A stretch of DNA of 60,486 nucleotides from an uncultured Candidatus Saccharibacteria bacterium (GTDB taxonomy: Bacteria > Patescibacteriota > WWE3 > 2-01-FULL-39-13): contig CAZEDS010000002.1 of NCBI GenBank assembly GCA_964510925.1, positions 32,482 to 92,967 of the forward strand, read 5' to 3'. Every line of letters starts with the position of its first letter. Within the stretch, counting starts at the first letter, position 1. The position numbers were made by a program, and so were the translations under genes. Below are positions 54,052 through 60,486 of this stretch, one piece after another. A model generated the notes under the pieces. The model was not told the DNA's origin. It worked only from the letters and a program-made list of their open reading frames with translations, and searched no databases.

Positions 54052-54457
54052 TTATTTGAGTAAGTTCGCTTTTTGAATCTGAAACTCTTTTTCTGTTAAT
54101 ATTCCACTTTCTTTAAGTTTTGCTAGCTTTGCCAGTTCATCTGCAATACTAGTATTACTATTATCGCTCTTTACATTCATTATTGCTTCTTGTGCTTTAT
54201 AAATAGCCTCTTTTACCTCTTTTTTCTTATTTGTTGGTATTTTATATTTTATTCCGCCTGAAGTTTCAATTATTATTTGCATGTATCCCATCATCCCTAA
54301 TTGAATACTAGCAACTTGATTAATTGGAACATTTTGAGTCCCAGCCTGCTTTGAACTCAACTCTTGCGGGATAAACTTTTATCCAAAAACCAAGATAGCC
54401 TGTTTCGAAAATAGGTTTATCAACATTAGCATTGTGATTATTTTTGAAAAAATTCAT
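54052..54457 (-). pseudogene. Frameshifted PH-like/SHOCT protein
   Basis: Frame from ATG 54457 (..FWIKVYPARVEFKAG) stops at 54320; a +1 frame continues GTQNVPINQVASI..SIADELAKLAKLKESGILTEKEF (SHOCT). Confidence 0.6.
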
Positions 54458-54485: not shown

Positions 54486-57400
54486 CTAATTAAATTTCCC
54501 ATTCGAAATATCAAAGAATCGTTCAAAAAATCCAGTCAGTTTATCGATTACTGTTTCTCTCTTTTTTGTGCGATCACCGGTTGGCGAGAAAAGTGACATT
54601 GGAGGCAGTACTTTGGTAATAGCCGTACCGGTTGTCGTTACAGATCCATCCCTAAATGCATTTTTTATGAAATTATATGTTGCTGTTGTATCTAGCGATT
54701 CATTCTTTATAATTGCATCTAACTCTTCGATCTTTTCTTTTTCGATAAAAGTTCGCCAATCATTTTCAATTTCTGAATGAACATCTAAAGTTGATATAAA
54801 TTTGTTAATAAGGTCTTTTTTGTTTCTAAGTTCAACGCTTGAATCTACGGCTTTGTTAATATCTACTAATATTTCTCGGTTTTTTGTGTGGTCTTCGTGA
54901 TATTTTTTAATGAGGCTTAAAATATAATCGATATTAATTTCTATCTGTTTTATTAGTTCCATTTCAAAAATCAGATCATCGTTTATATTTTCCTTTTCTT
55001 CATTTTTTCCTTTTCTAAATTCTTTATAAAGATCAATATAAATGCTGTGATAATCTTGTATATCACGATCTGTTAAGATTTCGTTACCAGTAAATTCATC
55101 AAAGCTTGTTAGTATATTTCTTAATCTCAAAATTGAGTTATACAATTTAATAAAATCTTTTTGATTTTGTTCACCAACAATTCTTTCACCAATTGGAAAT
55201 TTTTGTAAAAGCTCACCTACCAAGCTTGCATAGCCTCGAATATCTTTTTCATCTTCTTTATAACCATTGTAATAATCTGAATAAGATTTAAGCAAAACAA
55301 TACCGCAAGCTTCTTTGTCTCCAAAGAGTGAGATTGAATCGTTTGTTGCTTTTTCTAAATTTCGGAAGCAGACAATATTTCCAAAAGTTTTTACACTATT
55401 TAATATACGATTGGTTCGGGAAAATGCTTGTAATAGACCGTGCATTTGTAAGTTTTTATCTACCCATAAAGTATTAAGCGTCGTCGCATCAAAGCCGGTT
55501 AAAAACATATTAACAACAATCAAAATATCGAGTTCTCGATTTTTAACTCGTTCGCTTACATCTTTATAGTAATTTTGGAATTTATCAGCTGATGTATCAA
55601 ATGAAGTTCCAAACATTTTATTATAATCTTCGATGGCTTTTTCAAGAAAATCTCTTGAACTTGCATCTAAACCGCTCGTATCTTCGGAGTTTTCGTCCGT
55701 CATTCCATCTGAATCTTCATCATTTACTCCAAAACTATAAATAGTTGCGATTTTAAGTTGTTTGTCGCTTGGCACTTGGGCTAATTGATTTTTAAATTCT
55801 GAATAATATTTTTTTGCCATTTCAATTGATGAAACAGCAAATATAGAATTAAAACCTGCAAGTCTACGATCTTTAAGTTGATAGAAAATATTTCGTTTAG
55901 TTTTTTGATCAAAATGTTTTAAGATATAACCTACAATATTTGATAATCTAGCAGGTGAAGATAAAACTGCTTCCCTATCAATATCTTTTATTTGGGCGTC
56001 TTCGATATTTTCCGCTTCACGCACTGTTGATACATAATCAACCTTAAATGGTAAAACATTTTTATCTGCAATTGCATCAACAATTGTATAGGTATGCAAC
56101 TTAGCTCCAAAAGCTTGTTCAGTTGTTTTTAATTGAGACTTACTATTAGATGAAGCATTATTTGCAAATATTGGAGTACCTGTAAAGCCAAAAATATGAT
56201 AATTCTTGAAAGCTTTGGTAATAGCTGTATGCATATTACCAAATTGAGAACGATGGCACTCATCAAAAATTAATACTACATGGCCATTAAAAACAGTATG
56301 TCCAAGATTTTTTGATATAAATCGATCAAGTTTTTGAATTGTTGTGATGATAATTTTCGCGTTTGAGTCTTCAAGCTGTTTCTTTAAGATTGATGTACTT
56401 TTATTACTATTTGCAGCTCCTTTTTCAAACTTATCGTACTCTCTCATTGTTTGGTAATCTAAGTCTTTTCTATCAACTACAAAGATTACCTTATCGATCA
56501 TTTTTAATTTGCTAGCCAATTGAGAGGTTTTAAAACTGGTTAAAGTTTTACCAGAGCCGGTTGTGTGCCAAATATATCCACCGGCATCTACAGTACCAAG
56601 CTTTTTATAATTGGTGCTGATTTCTATTCGATTTAATATTTTTTCGGTTGCAACTATTTGATAAGGCCTCATGACTAAAAGTTGGCGATCAGCAGTAAAT
56701 ACACAGTATTTAGTTAATATATTAAGTAGCGTATGTTTTGCAAAAAAAGTTTTAGCAAAATCTATTAAATCAGTTATTGGCCTATTAGTTTCATCTGCCC
56801 ACCAACTTGTAAATTCAAAACTGTTGCTTGATTGTTTACCTTTTTTTACTTTGGAAGAACCTGATTCTTTAATATGTTGAAAGCGCGTTGTATTACTATA
56901 ATATTTGGTATGAGTACCATTTGAGATAATAAACAATTGAATGTATTCATATAAACCAGATAAAGCCCAAAAGCTTTCGCGCTGATATCTATTAATTTGA
57001 TTAAAAGCCTCTTGGATTGAAACCCCTCGCCTTTTAAGTTCAATATGAACAAGTGGTAAACCATTTACCAAAACAGTTACATCGTAACGATTCGCACGCT
57101 GACCATCTTCGGTTGCATATTGATTAATAACCTGCAAAGTATTGTCGTGAATATTGTTTTTATTTAGAAAATAGATATTTCGTATGAGTCCATTATCAAG
57201 TGTTAAGTTTTTAACATGATCCTCTTGAATAGTTGCTGTTTTGTCTTTAATACTCTGATTTGGATTTGCGATTTCGCCGGTAAAGAATCTATCCCATTCA
57301 CTATCTGTAAAAGTAAAATTATTCAGCTTTTCTAGCTGCTTGCGTAAATTTAAAATTAAATCGGCTTCTGATTTTATCTTAAAAAATTCATAACCTTGGT

Positions 57401-57551
57401 TTTTTAACTGCTCAATAAATTCCTGCTCTAACTCTGATTCGCTCTGATAACCTTTATCACGAACAGATAAAGTATCAGGAAAATACTGTGCGACGACCGT
57501 ACTCTTATTGTTTTGTGCAACAGTTTCATAACCAATAGATTTATTTGCCAT
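54486..57551 (-). CDS. hsdR: Type I restriction endonuclease subunit R (EcoR124I-like)
   Basis: RYDVTVLVNGLPLVHIELK nuclease, HTTGSGKT, DECH, FTGTP, MFLTGFD, QAFSRTNR. Confidence 0.96.
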   Translation of the reverse strand: MANKSIGYETVAQNNKSTVVAQYFPDTLSVRDKGYQSESELEQEFIEQLKNQGYEFFKIKSEADLILNLRKQLEKLNNFTFTDSEWDRFFTGEIANPNQSIKDKTATIQEDHVKNLTLDNGLIRNIYFLNKNNIHDNTLQVINQYATEDGQRANRYDVTVLVNGLPLVHIELKRRGVSIQEAFNQINRYQRESFWALSGLYEYIQLFIISNGTHTKYYSNTTRFQHIKESGSSKVKKGKQSSNSFEFTSWWADETNRPITDLIDFAKTFFAKHTLLNILTKYCVFTADRQLLVMRPYQIVATEKILNRIEISTNYKKLGTVDAGGYIWHTTGSGKTLTSFKTSQLASKLKMIDKVIFVVDRKDLDYQTMREYDKFEKGAANSNKSTSILKKQLEDSNAKIIITTIQKLDRFISKNLGHTVFNGHVVLIFDECHRSQFGNMHTAITKAFKNYHIFGFTGTPIFANNASSNSKSQLKTTEQAFGAKLHTYTIVDAIADKNVLPFKVDYVSTVREAENIEDAQIKDIDREAVLSSPARLSNIVGYILKHFDQKTKRNIFYQLKDRRLAGFNSIFAVSSIEMAKKYYSEFKNQLAQVPSDKQLKIATIYSFGVNDEDSDGMTDENSEDTSGLDASSRDFLEKAIEDYNKMFGTSFDTSADKFQNYYKDVSERVKNRELDILIVVNMFLTGFDATTLNTLWVDKNLQMHGLLQAFSRTNRILNSVKTFGNIVCFRNLEKATNDSISLFGDKEACGIVLLKSYSDYYNGYKEDEKDIRGYASLVGELLQKFPIGERIVGEQNQKDFIKLYNSILRLRNILTSFDEFTGNEILTDRDIQDYHSIYIDLYKEFRKGKNEEKENINDDLIFEMELIKQIEINIDYILSLIKKYHEDHTKNREILVDINKAVDSSVELRNKKDLINKFISTLDVHSEIENDWRTFIEKEKIEELDAIIKNESLDTTATYNFIKNAFRDGSVTTTGTAITKVLPPMSLFSPTGDRTKKRETVIDKLTGFFERFFDISNGKFN

Positions 57552-58716
57552 ATTCCTTAAAACTCAACAACTTATCACGATAATACTCGTACTGTTTTCT
57601 GCGTGCGTCAAGTTCTGCCGGTAAACCGATTGAAATATCGTTTACCAATGCGTCAAATTTATCGAGGATGGAGACGATGCGGGATTGTTCTGGGAGAGAA
57701 GGTAATAAAATTGGATATTTAAGAAACATTGGTCTTCTCAATGAAGAGACAGAAGCATGAACAGAAATTTGTTGTAAATATTTACCAAAGTTAGTCAACA
57801 TATAATGATAGATAAATTTTACATTCACATCCTTATTTGGAACTATACGATAAGCTCGTTGATGTAATGCATATTTGCCATTAGCAAAATGAAAAACCTT
57901 TCCTACACCCACACCATCACCAGCTGTAATAATTGCACTTTCATCGAAATCATAAGTGTTCAGAGATAAGGGTTCTCTACCTCGTGCATAAAAAATATTT
58001 TTACCATTCTCAATTGCCTCTTTTGTATCATGAGATCCTGTACCAATTGTCGCTATATCACCAAGTAATACTTCTTTAGATTCTTTGCTAGAAAAAAGTA
58101 TTCTATCTCGATAATATTCATATTGCACTTTTCTTGTTTCTAGTTCTGTTTCTAGTTCTGTTTCTAGTTCTGTAAAAGTATCAAGGATTTTTACTATTTC
58201 TTCTTGGATGGGTAGAGGTGGAACGGGGATTTTAATTTTTGATAGGTCATTAGCCGAAATATCAATAACTTTTGTCCCTTTTGCAAACTTTGTTTTCTCG
58301 CTGGAAAAGATTGCAGTTTGAAAATAATAAGCTAAGTATTTAGGATTTTCATGATGCCTAAATATAATTGCATGACCACCTGTTACAATCTCATCGTCAC
58401 CGAGCCATGCAACAGCCTTACATACATCCTGAATATTTTCGCTGGTGCTAGTAATTATCAAATCACCTTTTGCTACTTTTTTTAATTTATTAGCGGTTTC
58501 AACAGAAACGAATGATTTAGTTTTTTCTGTGAATGTCCTATAAAAAGTATATATTTGTCCATAATGAATACATCCTACTCCACTTTCAACGAAATCCGTT
58601 TTAGGTAATCCATTACCACGTATTAAATTTCCAACTGATCCGAGTGGTTTATATTCAACACCATTCGGACAAAAGTTATTGATTAATTTTTCGATTTTAT
58701 TTATTTGTTTAGCCAT
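57541..58716 (-). CDS. hsdS: Type I R-M specificity subunit S (type IC-like)
   Basis: Two TRDs; PVPPLPIQEEIVKILD and PSLPEQSRIVSILD; RKxQYEYYRD; TELE repeats. Confidence 0.93.
   Translation of the reverse strand: MAKQINKIEKLINNFCPNGVEYKPLGSVGNLIRGNGLPKTDFVESGVGCIHYGQIYTFYRTFTEKTKSFVSVETANKLKKVAKGDLIITSTSENIQDVCKAVAWLGDDEIVTGGHAIIFRHHENPKYLAYYFQTAIFSSEKTKFAKGTKVIDISANDLSKIKIPVPPLPIQEEIVKILDTFTELETELETELETRKVQYEYYRDRILFSSKESKEVLLGDIATIGTGSHDTKEAIENGKNIFYARGREPLSLNTYDFDESAIITAGDGVGVGKVFHFANGKYALHQRAYRIVPNKDVNVKFIYHYMLTNFGKYLQQISVHASVSSLRRPMFLKYPILLPSLPEQSRIVSILDKFDALVNDISIGLPAELDARRKQYEYYRDKLLSFKEYGK
58135..58173. repeat. 12-bp tandem repeat x3 in the hsdS central conserved region
   Basis: TGTTTCTAGTTC at 58135, 58147, 58159; encodes TELE-TELE-TELE. 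Confidence 0.9.
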
Positions 58717-60188
58717 ATTAACAACTGTATTAGCGAATTAGTTGAGCTCTCTAAATCCTCTTCATTAAATTTTTTATTATGCGTGTTTTCTGGATGATGA
58801 ATTATATTTCTGATATAAGTGGGAAGTGTGGTGTTGTATTCTATGGTATTCCCATCTTTAAGTAACCGTATATATTTTATATCTTTCCCTAATTTGTGAC
58901 TCACGTTTTGAGTCTCCGCTACCAACCAATCATCAAAATTTTTTTCCTCATAATAATTTTCATTCAACAAAGTCGCTTTGGCCTGAATAAACCCATATAG
59001 TTCGTTATGGAATTCAACTGATCCAACACCAAATGCATAATAATTGATTTCGCCCCAAGTCGGGCTCGAATCACCAAAGAGATTTAATTCTTGACTTGGC
59101 GCCACTTTATTTAAACCATTATTCTTTGAAAATATATTTATCGAATGGGTGCCTTTTTTATATTTCCTTAATAAATATGGTGAATGTGTGATGATAAATA
59201 CTTGCGATTTATTCGATATTTTTTCAAGAGCATTTATCAATTTATTTTGTGCTTTAGGATGTAAAAAAGTTTCAGGCTCATCAATGAAAAACATTATTGG
59301 TTTTGAAACCGTCTCAGCGTTAATAGAGGTTATTTCAGCATATACCTGAATAAGCGCAAGTGCTAATGATCTTTGCATACCAGTACCTTTTTCCGCACTT
59401 TTTGTCTCAATTCCACTTTCAGATAACTCTATATTTCCTGTTTTAAAAAAACTCTCTATTTCAGGCAAGGAAAAACTGAATCTAACTTCAGTTTCACCAT
59501 ATTGTTCCGATAAAATTGTTTTTAACTTTTCTTCAACGGGTCTTAAAATCCTACAAATACTTTCTTCACCATCTCCAAACGCTTTTGCATGTGATTCCCT
59601 AAATTCCCTCCATGCTGGAGATTTAGTAAAATCTTTTGTAATGGCATTAATAATTTTCCCGCATATCTTGGTTTTTGAAAAATCTGATACATCATTTGAA
59701 TCGGTATCAGCCCAAACAAATTGAGCATCAAATAATGCGGAAATAGTAGTATCTACCCCCGTGGGATTCTTAAAGTCCCTAGTCGTAGGATTAAAAAACC
59801 GAACATCCGCTATAGATAAGCATCTACTTCTGTTGTTTTGTATAACTTCATCCTCCTTACTAGAACGCATTACACGTATACTTTTTTGACCATCATTATC
59901 AATTACATATGATTGATATTTCTTAAGTCCCACTTTAACAAGAAGATCCTCGATATCATCTCCCTTGAATTCAATTTCTACGGAAACAAAACCTGAACCA
60001 TTAATCTCTGTTTTTGTAATTACCTCTTCTCTTAATTTTTTACTCCGGATAAAATCAATGGCTTCAAAAACTGTCGATTTTCCACAATTGTTATCACCTA
60101 CAAATAGGTTTACACCTTTTTCAAAATCTATTTCATGATCACCCTTATAGCCTTTGAAATTATGAAGTTTGATTTTCGATATATACAT
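58701..60188 (-). CDS. ABC/OLD-type ATPase with C-terminal HEPN-like domain
   Basis: GDNNCGKST, GTGMQR, FIDEPETFLHP, ITHS; no TOPRIM; C-terminal FHNELYG..IRNIIHHPEN (RxxxxH). Confidence 0.75.
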   Translation of the reverse strand: MYISKIKLHNFKGYKGDHEIDFEKGVNLFVGDNNCGKSTVFEAIDFIRSKKLREEVITKTEINGSGFVSVEIEFKGDDIEDLLVKVGLKKYQSYVIDNDGQKSIRVMRSSKEDEVIQNNRSRCLSIADVRFFNPTTRDFKNPTGVDTTISALFDAQFVWADTDSNDVSDFSKTKICGKIINAITKDFTKSPAWREFRESHAKAFGDGEESICRILRPVEEKLKTILSEQYGETEVRFSFSLPEIESFFKTGNIELSESGIETKSAEKGTGMQRSLALALIQVYAEITSINAETVSKPIMFFIDEPETFLHPKAQNKLINALEKISNKSQVFIITHSPYLLRKYKKGTHSINIFSKNNGLNKVAPSQELNLFGDSSPTWGEINYYAFGVGSVEFHNELYGFIQAKATLLNENYYEEKNFDDWLVAETQNVSHKLGKDIKYIRLLKDGNTIEYNTTLPTYIRNIIHHPENTHNKKFNEEDLESSTNSLIQLLIWLNK

Positions 60189-60223: not shown

Positions 60224-60486
60224 TCATTCACTTAACTTTTTTGTAACATTCTTCTCCACTTTCTTAATATTCTCCAAATATTCTTTTTCCACCTCAGATA
60301 ATGTTTTTGTCTGGTATTTTTTATATTCTGTGTGGGCTTTTGCTTCGGCTTCAATTTTGCTAATTGTGCCAGCATCTTTTAGAACTTTTCTGTCCATCGA
60401 AGCAATAAGATTATCTAATTGGTTGAGGTAATCTTGCATGTGTGTTTCTTTTTGATCTAAGGCTCTTAATTCTGCTATATCAAAAT
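60224..60486 (-). CDS. RhuM-family protein, C-terminal part (continues beyond the window)
   Basis: Frame open to the edge: FDIAELRALDQKETHMQDYLNQLD..AGTISKIEAEAKAHTEYKKY. Confidence 0.75.
   Translation of the reverse strand, partial: FDIAELRALDQKETHMQDYLNQLDNLIASMDRKVLKDAGTISKIEAEAKAHTEYKKYQTKTLSEVEKEYLENIKKVEKNVTKKLSE

Follow-up and report, generated by a model that had tools for sequence, protein, structure and literature searches.

An OLD-type ABC ATPase with a HEPN-like orphan C-terminal domain in a type I restriction-modification operon of a Saccharibacteria genome

Introduction

Does an ATPase gene lodged among the subunit genes of a type I restriction-modification (R-M) system sense the failure of restriction, or does it merely hitch-hike with the restriction genes? 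This question is raised by a 60,486 bp stretch of DNA from an uncultured Candidatus Saccharibacteria bacterium (contig CAZEDS010000002.1 of the assembly GCA_964510925.1, positions 32,482 to 92,967 of the forward strand), which was analysed as a whole and is called the window below. Near its end an open reading frame (ORF) coding for 495 aa, here designated gene X (58701..60188, minus strand), overlaps hsdS. A sequence-only reading of the window had described the product of X as an ABC ATPase ending in a HEPN-like domain and proposed it to be a backup effector of the PrrC kind.

Defences built on an ABC ATPase (OLD, Gabija, PARIS, Septu, PrrC) form a major theme in bacterial immunity. Several of them are now known to be tRNases; tRNA cleavage was reported for OLD, PARIS, retron-Septu, PrrC and RloC. 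ABC ATPase defences can be embedded in other systems, a "guilt by embedding" demonstrated in 2024 (bioRxiv 2024.01.29.577857), and ABC-HEPN proteins encoded in R-M/RhuM loci have been a known kind since 2013 (PMC3710099). In the family of X, the chassis of the OLD ATPase is re-armed with a different, unannotated effector. We consider X to be a self-contained single-polypeptide defence in which an ABC-ATPase sensor or switch is fused to an effector, probably an RNase, and which is mobile among R-M operons. We put the probability of this reading at about 0.5.

An OLD-type ATPase joined to an orphan C-terminal domain

The 495-aa ORF is confirmed: its start (MYISKIKLHNFKGY) agrees with the N-terminus of the family, and more than 1000 proteins match its product at E<=1e-5. 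The 16 nt overlap with hsdS, pointed out earlier, follows from the coordinates: the hsdS ATG (58716-58714) lies inside the 3' end of X, whose stop codon occupies 58703-58701.

The ABC ATPase domain of the OLD/AAA_15 type covers residues 1 to about 356 (59121..60188, minus strand). Pfam AAA_15 spans residues 1-339 (3e-34), with AAA_21, SMC_N and AAA_23 matching as well. The top PADLOC model is Old (3e-50), which covers the ATPase part only (model positions 2-345 of 578) and is followed by AriA (4e-34), GajA and PtuA. The closest of 50,697 phage records searched with tblastn is Old of phage P2 (27% identity over residues 3-376, E=2e-19), and the OLD ATPase of PDB entry 6p74 matches at 1.5e-6. 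When the AlphaFold2 (AF2) model of full-length X (pLDDT 88) was used for a Foldseek search, the nearest structures were GajA, the retron-Eco8 and retron-Eco7 ATPases and Rad50/SMC heads, all of them aligned over the ATPase only (E of about 1e-12, about 400 columns). The ATPase of X is homologous to those of P2 Old, GajA and retron-Eco8.

A full-length alignment of 61 X relatives, with identities down to 23%, was used to evaluate conservation. Residues N33, G36, K37, G268, G270, E304, P305, E306, H310 and H335 are invariant in it. Walker A (G31-DNNC-G36-K37-S38, 60075..60098, minus strand), the signature (G268, G270), Walker B (M299-FFID-E304, 59277..59294, minus strand, with the D303-E304 pair) and the H-loop (H335) are all invariant. 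Judging by these intact catalytic motifs, the ATPase should be active.

The earlier assignment of an OLD/AAA_15-type ATPase devoid of TOPRIM holds: no match to TOPRIM or DUF4435 was found in X, nor for the tail at E<=10. A TOPRIM remnant was considered as the identity of the tail and rejected, as the Old model stops at position 345 of 578 and there is no TOPRIM match. AAA_13, the ATPase type of PrrC and RloC, has no match in X at E<=0.1.

The tail (residues ~357-495, 58704..59120, minus strand) is an orphan domain, with no Pfam match even at E<=10 and none in NCBIfam or PADLOC. In the PADLOC check suggested by the sequence-only reading, the ATPase is recognised by the Old model and the tail by no model. 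As neither PADLOC nor Pfam has a model for the tail, current defence finders would at best mislabel members of this very common family, abundant in candidate phyla radiation (CPR) bacteria, as partial 'Old'. Existing product names of the relatives are 'AAA family ATPase' or 'OLD family endonuclease'.

A HMMER search with the last 150 aa of X against 1.84 billion cluster representatives yielded 506 clusters at 50% identity, 129 of them at E<=1e-10, and in these clusters the domain is nearly always located at the C-terminus of proteins of about 480 aa. The motif R460-N-I-I-H-H465 (58794..58811, minus strand), reported earlier as RNIIHH, occupies residues 460-465. Its R460 and H465 are invariant both in 131 representatives of the 50%-identity clusters and in the whole 61-sequence alignment, and the motif is clearly no product of chance. 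Among the 131 representatives, position 461 following the arginine is N in 104, H in 21 and D in four (129/131 together); H394 is conserved in 126, E396 in 124, H464 in 125, and P466, E467 and N468 in at least 122 each. H394, E396, H464, P466 and N468 are invariant in the full-length alignment.

The AF2 model of the tail alone, built from a 51-sequence alignment, has pLDDT 93 and pTM 0.87. The predicted tail begins with two strands completing the ATPase sheet, followed by helices 378-386, 391-408 (carrying H394 and E396) and 410-428. Then come a beta-hairpin (437-453), the short helix 455-464 with R460, an 11-residue loop, the first position of which is H465, and the long last helix 476-494. 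According to this model, the tail would be a helical domain of about 140 aa with a beta-hairpin insert, replacing TOPRIM.

Is the C-terminal domain HEPN?

HEPN domains are defined as an up-down core of four helices, about 100-120 aa long, with frequent inserts between helices 2 and 3; their motif is Rx4-6H with N, D or H after the arginine, and a conserved acidic residue is located in an upstream helix (PMC3710099). The tail of X carries such an Rx4-6H motif with a polar N, D or H after the arginine. In the predicted secondary structure, the motif spans the last residues of helix 455-464 and the first position of the loop behind it, the hairpin insert precedes it and E396 lies upstream in helix 391-408. 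All of these sequence and predicted secondary-structure features fit the HEPN definition. A motif located where the penultimate helix ends is diagnostic of the metal-independent RNase site of HEPN, and we infer both RNase activity of X and a fold relationship of its tail to HEPN.

Several results weigh against this assignment. Pfam scanning of 51 diverse tail members returned neither HEPN nor any other family, and the PDB sequence-profile search gave nothing relevant, only a chance match of 14.6 bits. Foldseek of the tail, proposed in the sequence-only reading as a way to find HEPN, produced no HEPN match in PDB and BFVD (best E 0.2-0.3; TM-score up to 0.26 normalised by query and up to 0.37 by target). 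The tail was also compared by hhalign with two sets built from genomes of the same phylum, one of five RloC-like tails (probability 0.5%) and one of 26 classical HEPN proteins (0.2%); ApeA-type HEPN was found at two loci only, too few for a profile. The sole stretch aligned with the RloC-like proteins comprises 19 residues, TLPTYIRNIIHH against TLANVMRRILEH, around their catalytic arginine, and this sequence resemblance is suggestive, not significant. Lastly, the three invariant histidines and the glutamate could equally form the metal site of a different hydrolase. Fold and profile tools have difficulty with small helical domains, so the failure of these tests is no exclusion of HEPN.

The lack of a profile or fold match would also be expected if the tail were a different catalytic effector, either a metal-dependent DNase or phosphoesterase built on H394, H464, H465 and E396/E467, or a degenerate beta-beta-alpha nuclease. 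The conserved tail residues are rich in His and Glu, the beta-hairpin is followed directly by the motif helix, and in the OLD, Gabija and Septu relatives the effectors are nucleases with different folds that act on DNA or tRNA. However, conservation in the hairpin is confined to T454 and L455, with neither a His nor an Asp, which would leave a His-Me finger without its general base, and the combination of R460-x4-H465, N/H/D after the arginine and the helix-end position is a specific HEPN signature. We regard an effector of another kind as unlikely. Its His-Me (beta-beta-alpha) version was rejected as improbable, because the hairpin is devoid of a conserved catalytic residue in the 131 representatives.

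As to the earlier claim that the tail is a HEPN domain, the motif and the order of the predicted secondary-structure elements speak for it, and the profile and fold searches did not bear it out. The most fitting label for the tail is HEPN-like, on account of its motif and predicted topology, with no assignment by homology.

Association with restriction-modification operons

About half of the X relatives sit translationally coupled in R-M operons of types I (IC and IB), II, IIG and III, or beside type IV systems. In a neighbour scan of 80 metagenome loci, picked by tail similarity only, about half of the immediate X neighbours carry R-M Pfam domains, which agrees with the expectation that homologues would be R-M-associated. 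The 55 upstream neighbours scanned include N6_Mtase (9), ResIII (5), Methylase_S (4), EcoRI_methylase (3) and N6_N4_Mtase (3) proteins, with single matches to Eco29kI, BsaWI, type ISP and Mrr. The 49 downstream neighbours include Methylase_S (12), HSDR_N (6), GmrSD_N (3) and others. Junctions between X and R-M genes are at most 30 nt long in 45 of 46 cases upstream and 30 of 31 downstream, the downstream genes overlapping in 28 of 31; the median gap to a non-R-M neighbour is 99 nt upstream and 62 nt downstream.

Embedding in a type IC hsd locus is observed in the window and in about 30 loci. About 20 of the loci have the order hsdM-(rhuM)-X-hsdS-hsdR, including one type IB operon (L007). In L068, L075, L102 and L103 the order is hsdS-X-hsdR, that is, X takes the position of prrC. 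A location upstream of hsdS, which the sequence-only reading had taken as distinguishing X from prrC, is consequently not a defining trait of the family, as some of its more distant members lie between hsdS and hsdR just as prrC does. Type III mod-res-X arrangements are found in metagenome loci and in Streptococcus, where every one of the 12 loci that have mod-res together with an intact X shows this order. Other contexts are an EcoRI-type methyltransferase (MTase) followed by X and DUF2130/GmrSD (L015, L044, L046, L051), X followed by a D12 MTase and AlwI (L013), an Eco57I-like type IIG gene followed by X (L064, L099), and X followed by GmrSD (L065, L066).

This variety bears on the possibility that X is a strict PrrC analogue, bound and silenced by the surrounding Hsd complex and set free when a phage anti-restriction protein hits that complex. 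The translational coupling of X inside hsd operons and the four loci with X in the very slot of prrC are what such an analogue would show. A maximum-likelihood tree of 95 full-length X proteins adds that the clade of the window (26 sequences, support 98) is wholly R-M-embedded, with 21 members in type I and five in other MTase contexts. Yet relatives of 55-69% identity ride with type IB, type II (EcoRI MTase, AlwI), type III and GmrSD systems, and the tree requires at least 15 context changes (42.6 with shuffled labels), so a specific mask would have to re-evolve many times. The lone plasmid and prophage copies described below, with no R-M genes nearby, argue against obligate masking, and the ATPase of X is of OLD type, not of the AAA_13 type found in PrrC. 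Altogether, masking by a dedicated Hsd complex seems to us rather improbable.

R-M adjacency can also arise by hitch-hiking in defence islands, without functional coupling, and this is a point against a defensive role of X in these operons. X might then be a selfish gene or a non-toxic R-M accessory, such as an ATP-driven regulator, a DNA-end sensor or an assembly factor, the tail then serving for binding. The short junctions indicate expression tightly coupled to R-M subunits, the tail has no recognisable nuclease fold, and X is split or truncated by frameshifts in a Saccharibacteria metagenome-assembled genome (MAG; L032), Streptococcus gordonii DD07 (L033) and S. oralis E665 (L034), which suggests repeated inactivation. 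In S. oralis E665, the type III mod-res genes flanking the broken X are intact. Against this stands the invariance of the tail Arg, His and Glu residues across 23-100% identity, arguing for catalysis. Besides, a single accessory is unlikely to serve mechanistically unrelated R-M types, and the lone copies in prophages and plasmids occupy 'moron' positions, as autonomous defence genes like P2 old typically do. We find an accessory or purely selfish X very improbable.

No conserved non-R-M partner gene was found across 120 loci, where the neighbours are R-M genes, integrases, insertion sequence (IS) elements and housekeeping genes.

Stand-alone copies

Plasmids of Lactobacillus, Weissella and Klebsiella carry lone full-length copies, 29-38% identical to X, that lie between IS elements or integrases; in 15 IMG/VR contigs, a copy is found among genes for an integrase, replication, a terminase and a baseplate. 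Of the 5,426 complete E. coli genomes searched, ten have a family member of 482 aa at the rcnR locus, where it directly follows a prophage integrase. This copy shares 37% identity with X and has the same motifs, EINF..ELHNELYG and IRNHIHHPEN. In E. coli SCU-316 this copy (L169:6998-8446) is annotated as 'ATP-dependent nuclease', and its position is of the same kind as that of old in P2. In the stand-alone clades, no partner gene with a recognisable domain was found. These lone plasmid and prophage copies show that X can do without a particular R-M partner.

Proposed mode of action

If X is indeed a self-contained defence protein, in the resting state the ATPase would keep the tails apart or occluded. 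An infection cue would alter the nucleotide state or the oligomer of X, and engagement of the ABC heads would pair two tails into a composite Rx4H site. The paired tails might then cut RNA, most plausibly tRNA or rRNA, and thereby abort the infection. The cue may be an anti-restriction protein that mimics DNA, as with PARIS, or else abnormal DNA ends or RecBCD inhibition, as with OLD. As X adjoins unrelated restriction enzymes and also stands alone, a specific contact with Hsd proteins is a less likely trigger than a general signal of infection. In such a scheme, X would be a mobile cassette which enters R-M operons in a translationally coupled manner and serves as a second layer when restriction fails.

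A bolder generalisation is possible, though we hold it to be doubtful. The tail may be the first member of a HEPN clade not recognised so far, or may represent an entirely new fold of small nucleases, and the OLD-tail proteins may be a widespread and uncatalogued single-gene abortive-infection 'restriction guard' for any R-M operon. They would respond to something common to failed restriction in general, such as unprocessed DNA ends or DNA-mimic anti-restriction proteins, instead of to a specific Hsd partner, and they would have spread horizontally among Patescibacteria, oral streptococci, Campylobacter, lactobacilli and enterobacterial prophages.

The occurrence of X with five R-M classes and in lone copies provides a good test of whether R-M-embedded genes sense restriction failure or merely hitch-hike, and the E. 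coli prophage homologue with its 37% identity and shared motifs makes the question experimentally tractable.

Family size, hosts and spread

The best 120 relatives are 64-72% identical to X with query coverage of 95-100% (99% in nearly all of them), and the few organism-named close relatives come from Beckwithbacteria, Paceibacterota and other Patescibacteria MAGs. In the sequence searches made here, members of the family were mostly from Patescibacteria. A taxonomic survey with one genome per species located relatives in Saccharibacteria, Paceibacterota, Dojkabacteria and Peribacteria, in a dozen oral streptococci, Streptococcus suis and an Enterococcus, and in Campylobacter and Gammaproteobacteria MAGs; oral streptococci account for 12 of the 29 species-genome loci. 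Across these phyla the sequences are 54-69% identical, which points to horizontal transfer of the family.

In Candidatus Enterococcus wittei (L030:3945-9452), the X module is the C-terminal part (~480 aa) of one long ORF of 1835 aa, which starts with HTH_3 followed by about 1300 residues without a Pfam match. True AAA_13 RloC-like proteins (~760 aa, with RxxxE...SH tails; L134-L138) were present in only five of the 301 sampled genomes of the phylum to which the window belongs.

The hsd locus of the window

The earlier statement that X is embedded in a type I R-M operon is correct, and the system is of type IC, with an EcoR124-type HsdR; hsdM lies outside the window, though. All genes of this locus are on the minus strand. 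Downstream of X, hsdS (57541..58716) has two target recognition domains (Pfam Methylase_S in two stretches, 6e-39; PADLOC Specificity_I) and overlaps hsdR by 11 nt. hsdR (54486..57551) is EcoR124 (type IC)-like, as judged by TIGR00348 (4e-171) and by Pfam EcoR124_C, T1R_D3-like and HSDR_N. Upstream of X, a spacer of 35 nt containing GAGG separates it from the 3' end of a rhuM-family gene (60224..60484; Pfam Virulence_RhuM 3e-13, PADLOC PDC-S05), of which the last 86 codons are left by the contig end. A scan for promoters and terminators gave no signal above shuffled expectation.

The window ends where its contig (C2) ends; the genome is 892 kb long, in 45 contigs, with a GC content of about 30%. 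It holds a single hsdR, a single hsdS and a single X. Another contig of 6 kb (C26) carries hsdM followed by rhuM, and its end is 96.8% identical to the window end at the nucleotide level (six mismatches in 188 nt) and 98% at the amino acid level. The operon order is most probably hsdM-rhuM-X-hsdS-hsdR, with the C26-C2 join unproven given the six mismatches; this order is intact in a related locus (L011).

The assembly break falls exactly within the R-M island. A second hsdM N-terminal fragment, 84% identical in amino acid sequence, is present on contig C40; the C26 and C40 copies of hsdM reflect either strain micro-heterogeneity of the MAG or a second, orphan hsdM. A third N6_Mtase-type ORF with an in-frame TGA (C33:1240-2193) may be a pseudogene or an assembly error. 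Directly downstream of hsdR, a SHOCT-domain protein of 102 aa is encoded at 54052-54360 (minus strand), at a place where many relatives have a DUF2130 gene. The product of the latter (~480 aa, no PADLOC match) is encoded just after hsdR or X in 10 related loci (L015:9427-10884, L018, L040, L042, L045, L046, L048, L052, L069 and L119), and the gene seems to co-travel with X cassettes.

Comparison with known systems

New in this work are the match to HEPN topology set beside negative fold and profile tests, the quantified and phylogenetically labile association with multiple R-M types, the link to P2 Old, the exclusion of the APECO1_4465 type and the E. coli prophage homologue as an experimental handle.

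P2 Old, the class 1-2 OLD nucleases, GajA and retron-Eco8 share with X the homologous ATPase and the layout of a sensor and an effector in a single polypeptide, and P2 Old also shares with some X copies the prophage position beside the integrase. OLD nucleases end in TOPRIM, whereas X has an unrelated domain of about 140 aa instead. PARIS has an AAA_15-type ATPase (AriA) like that of X and offers the concept of an ABC ATPase firing a tRNA-cutting effector upon anti-restriction proteins. It consists of two genes, though, with AriB as the TOPRIM effector, and no AriB/DUF4435 gene is located beside X. PARIS, Gabija and Septu each have a conserved partner (AriB, GajB and PtuB, respectively), and X has none.

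APECO1_4465 and ERFG_01251, both listed in 2013, have the layout of an ABC ATPase with a C-terminal HEPN, as X may have, and APECO1_4465 is prophage-borne like the E. coli copies of X. The HEPN of ERFG_01251 is of the classical MNT type, to which the tail of X shows no profile similarity. An APECO1_4465-type identity of X was rejected, as the tail profile has no match in APEC O1 (NC_008563.1) and finds the E. coli genome NZ_CP054371.1, the positive control, at 4e-43.

PrrC (encoded in the E. coli prr locus with the type IC system EcoprrI) and RloC resemble X in having an N-terminal ABC ATPase that regulates a C-terminal Arg/His-dependent effector. PrrC is likewise embedded in a type I R-M operon, sometimes together with RhuM, and the logic of a second line of defence is shared (PMC3710099). 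However, the PrrC/RloC ATPase is of AAA_13 type and that of X is OLD/AAA_15, and RloC-like tails have RxxxE...SH where X has RNxxHH; an anticodon nuclease domain with its Arg...Glu...His set was not recognised in X by hhalign. In contrast to PrrC, X is also found with type II, III and IV systems and alone. The distinctness from PrrC surmised in the sequence-only reading is therefore well founded: the ATPase is of OLD type without AAA_13, and the hhalign probability of the tail is 0.5%. Differing from PrrC/RloC in both ATPase clade and tail, the X family does not belong to them, and the likeness is probably one of design and not of ancestry.

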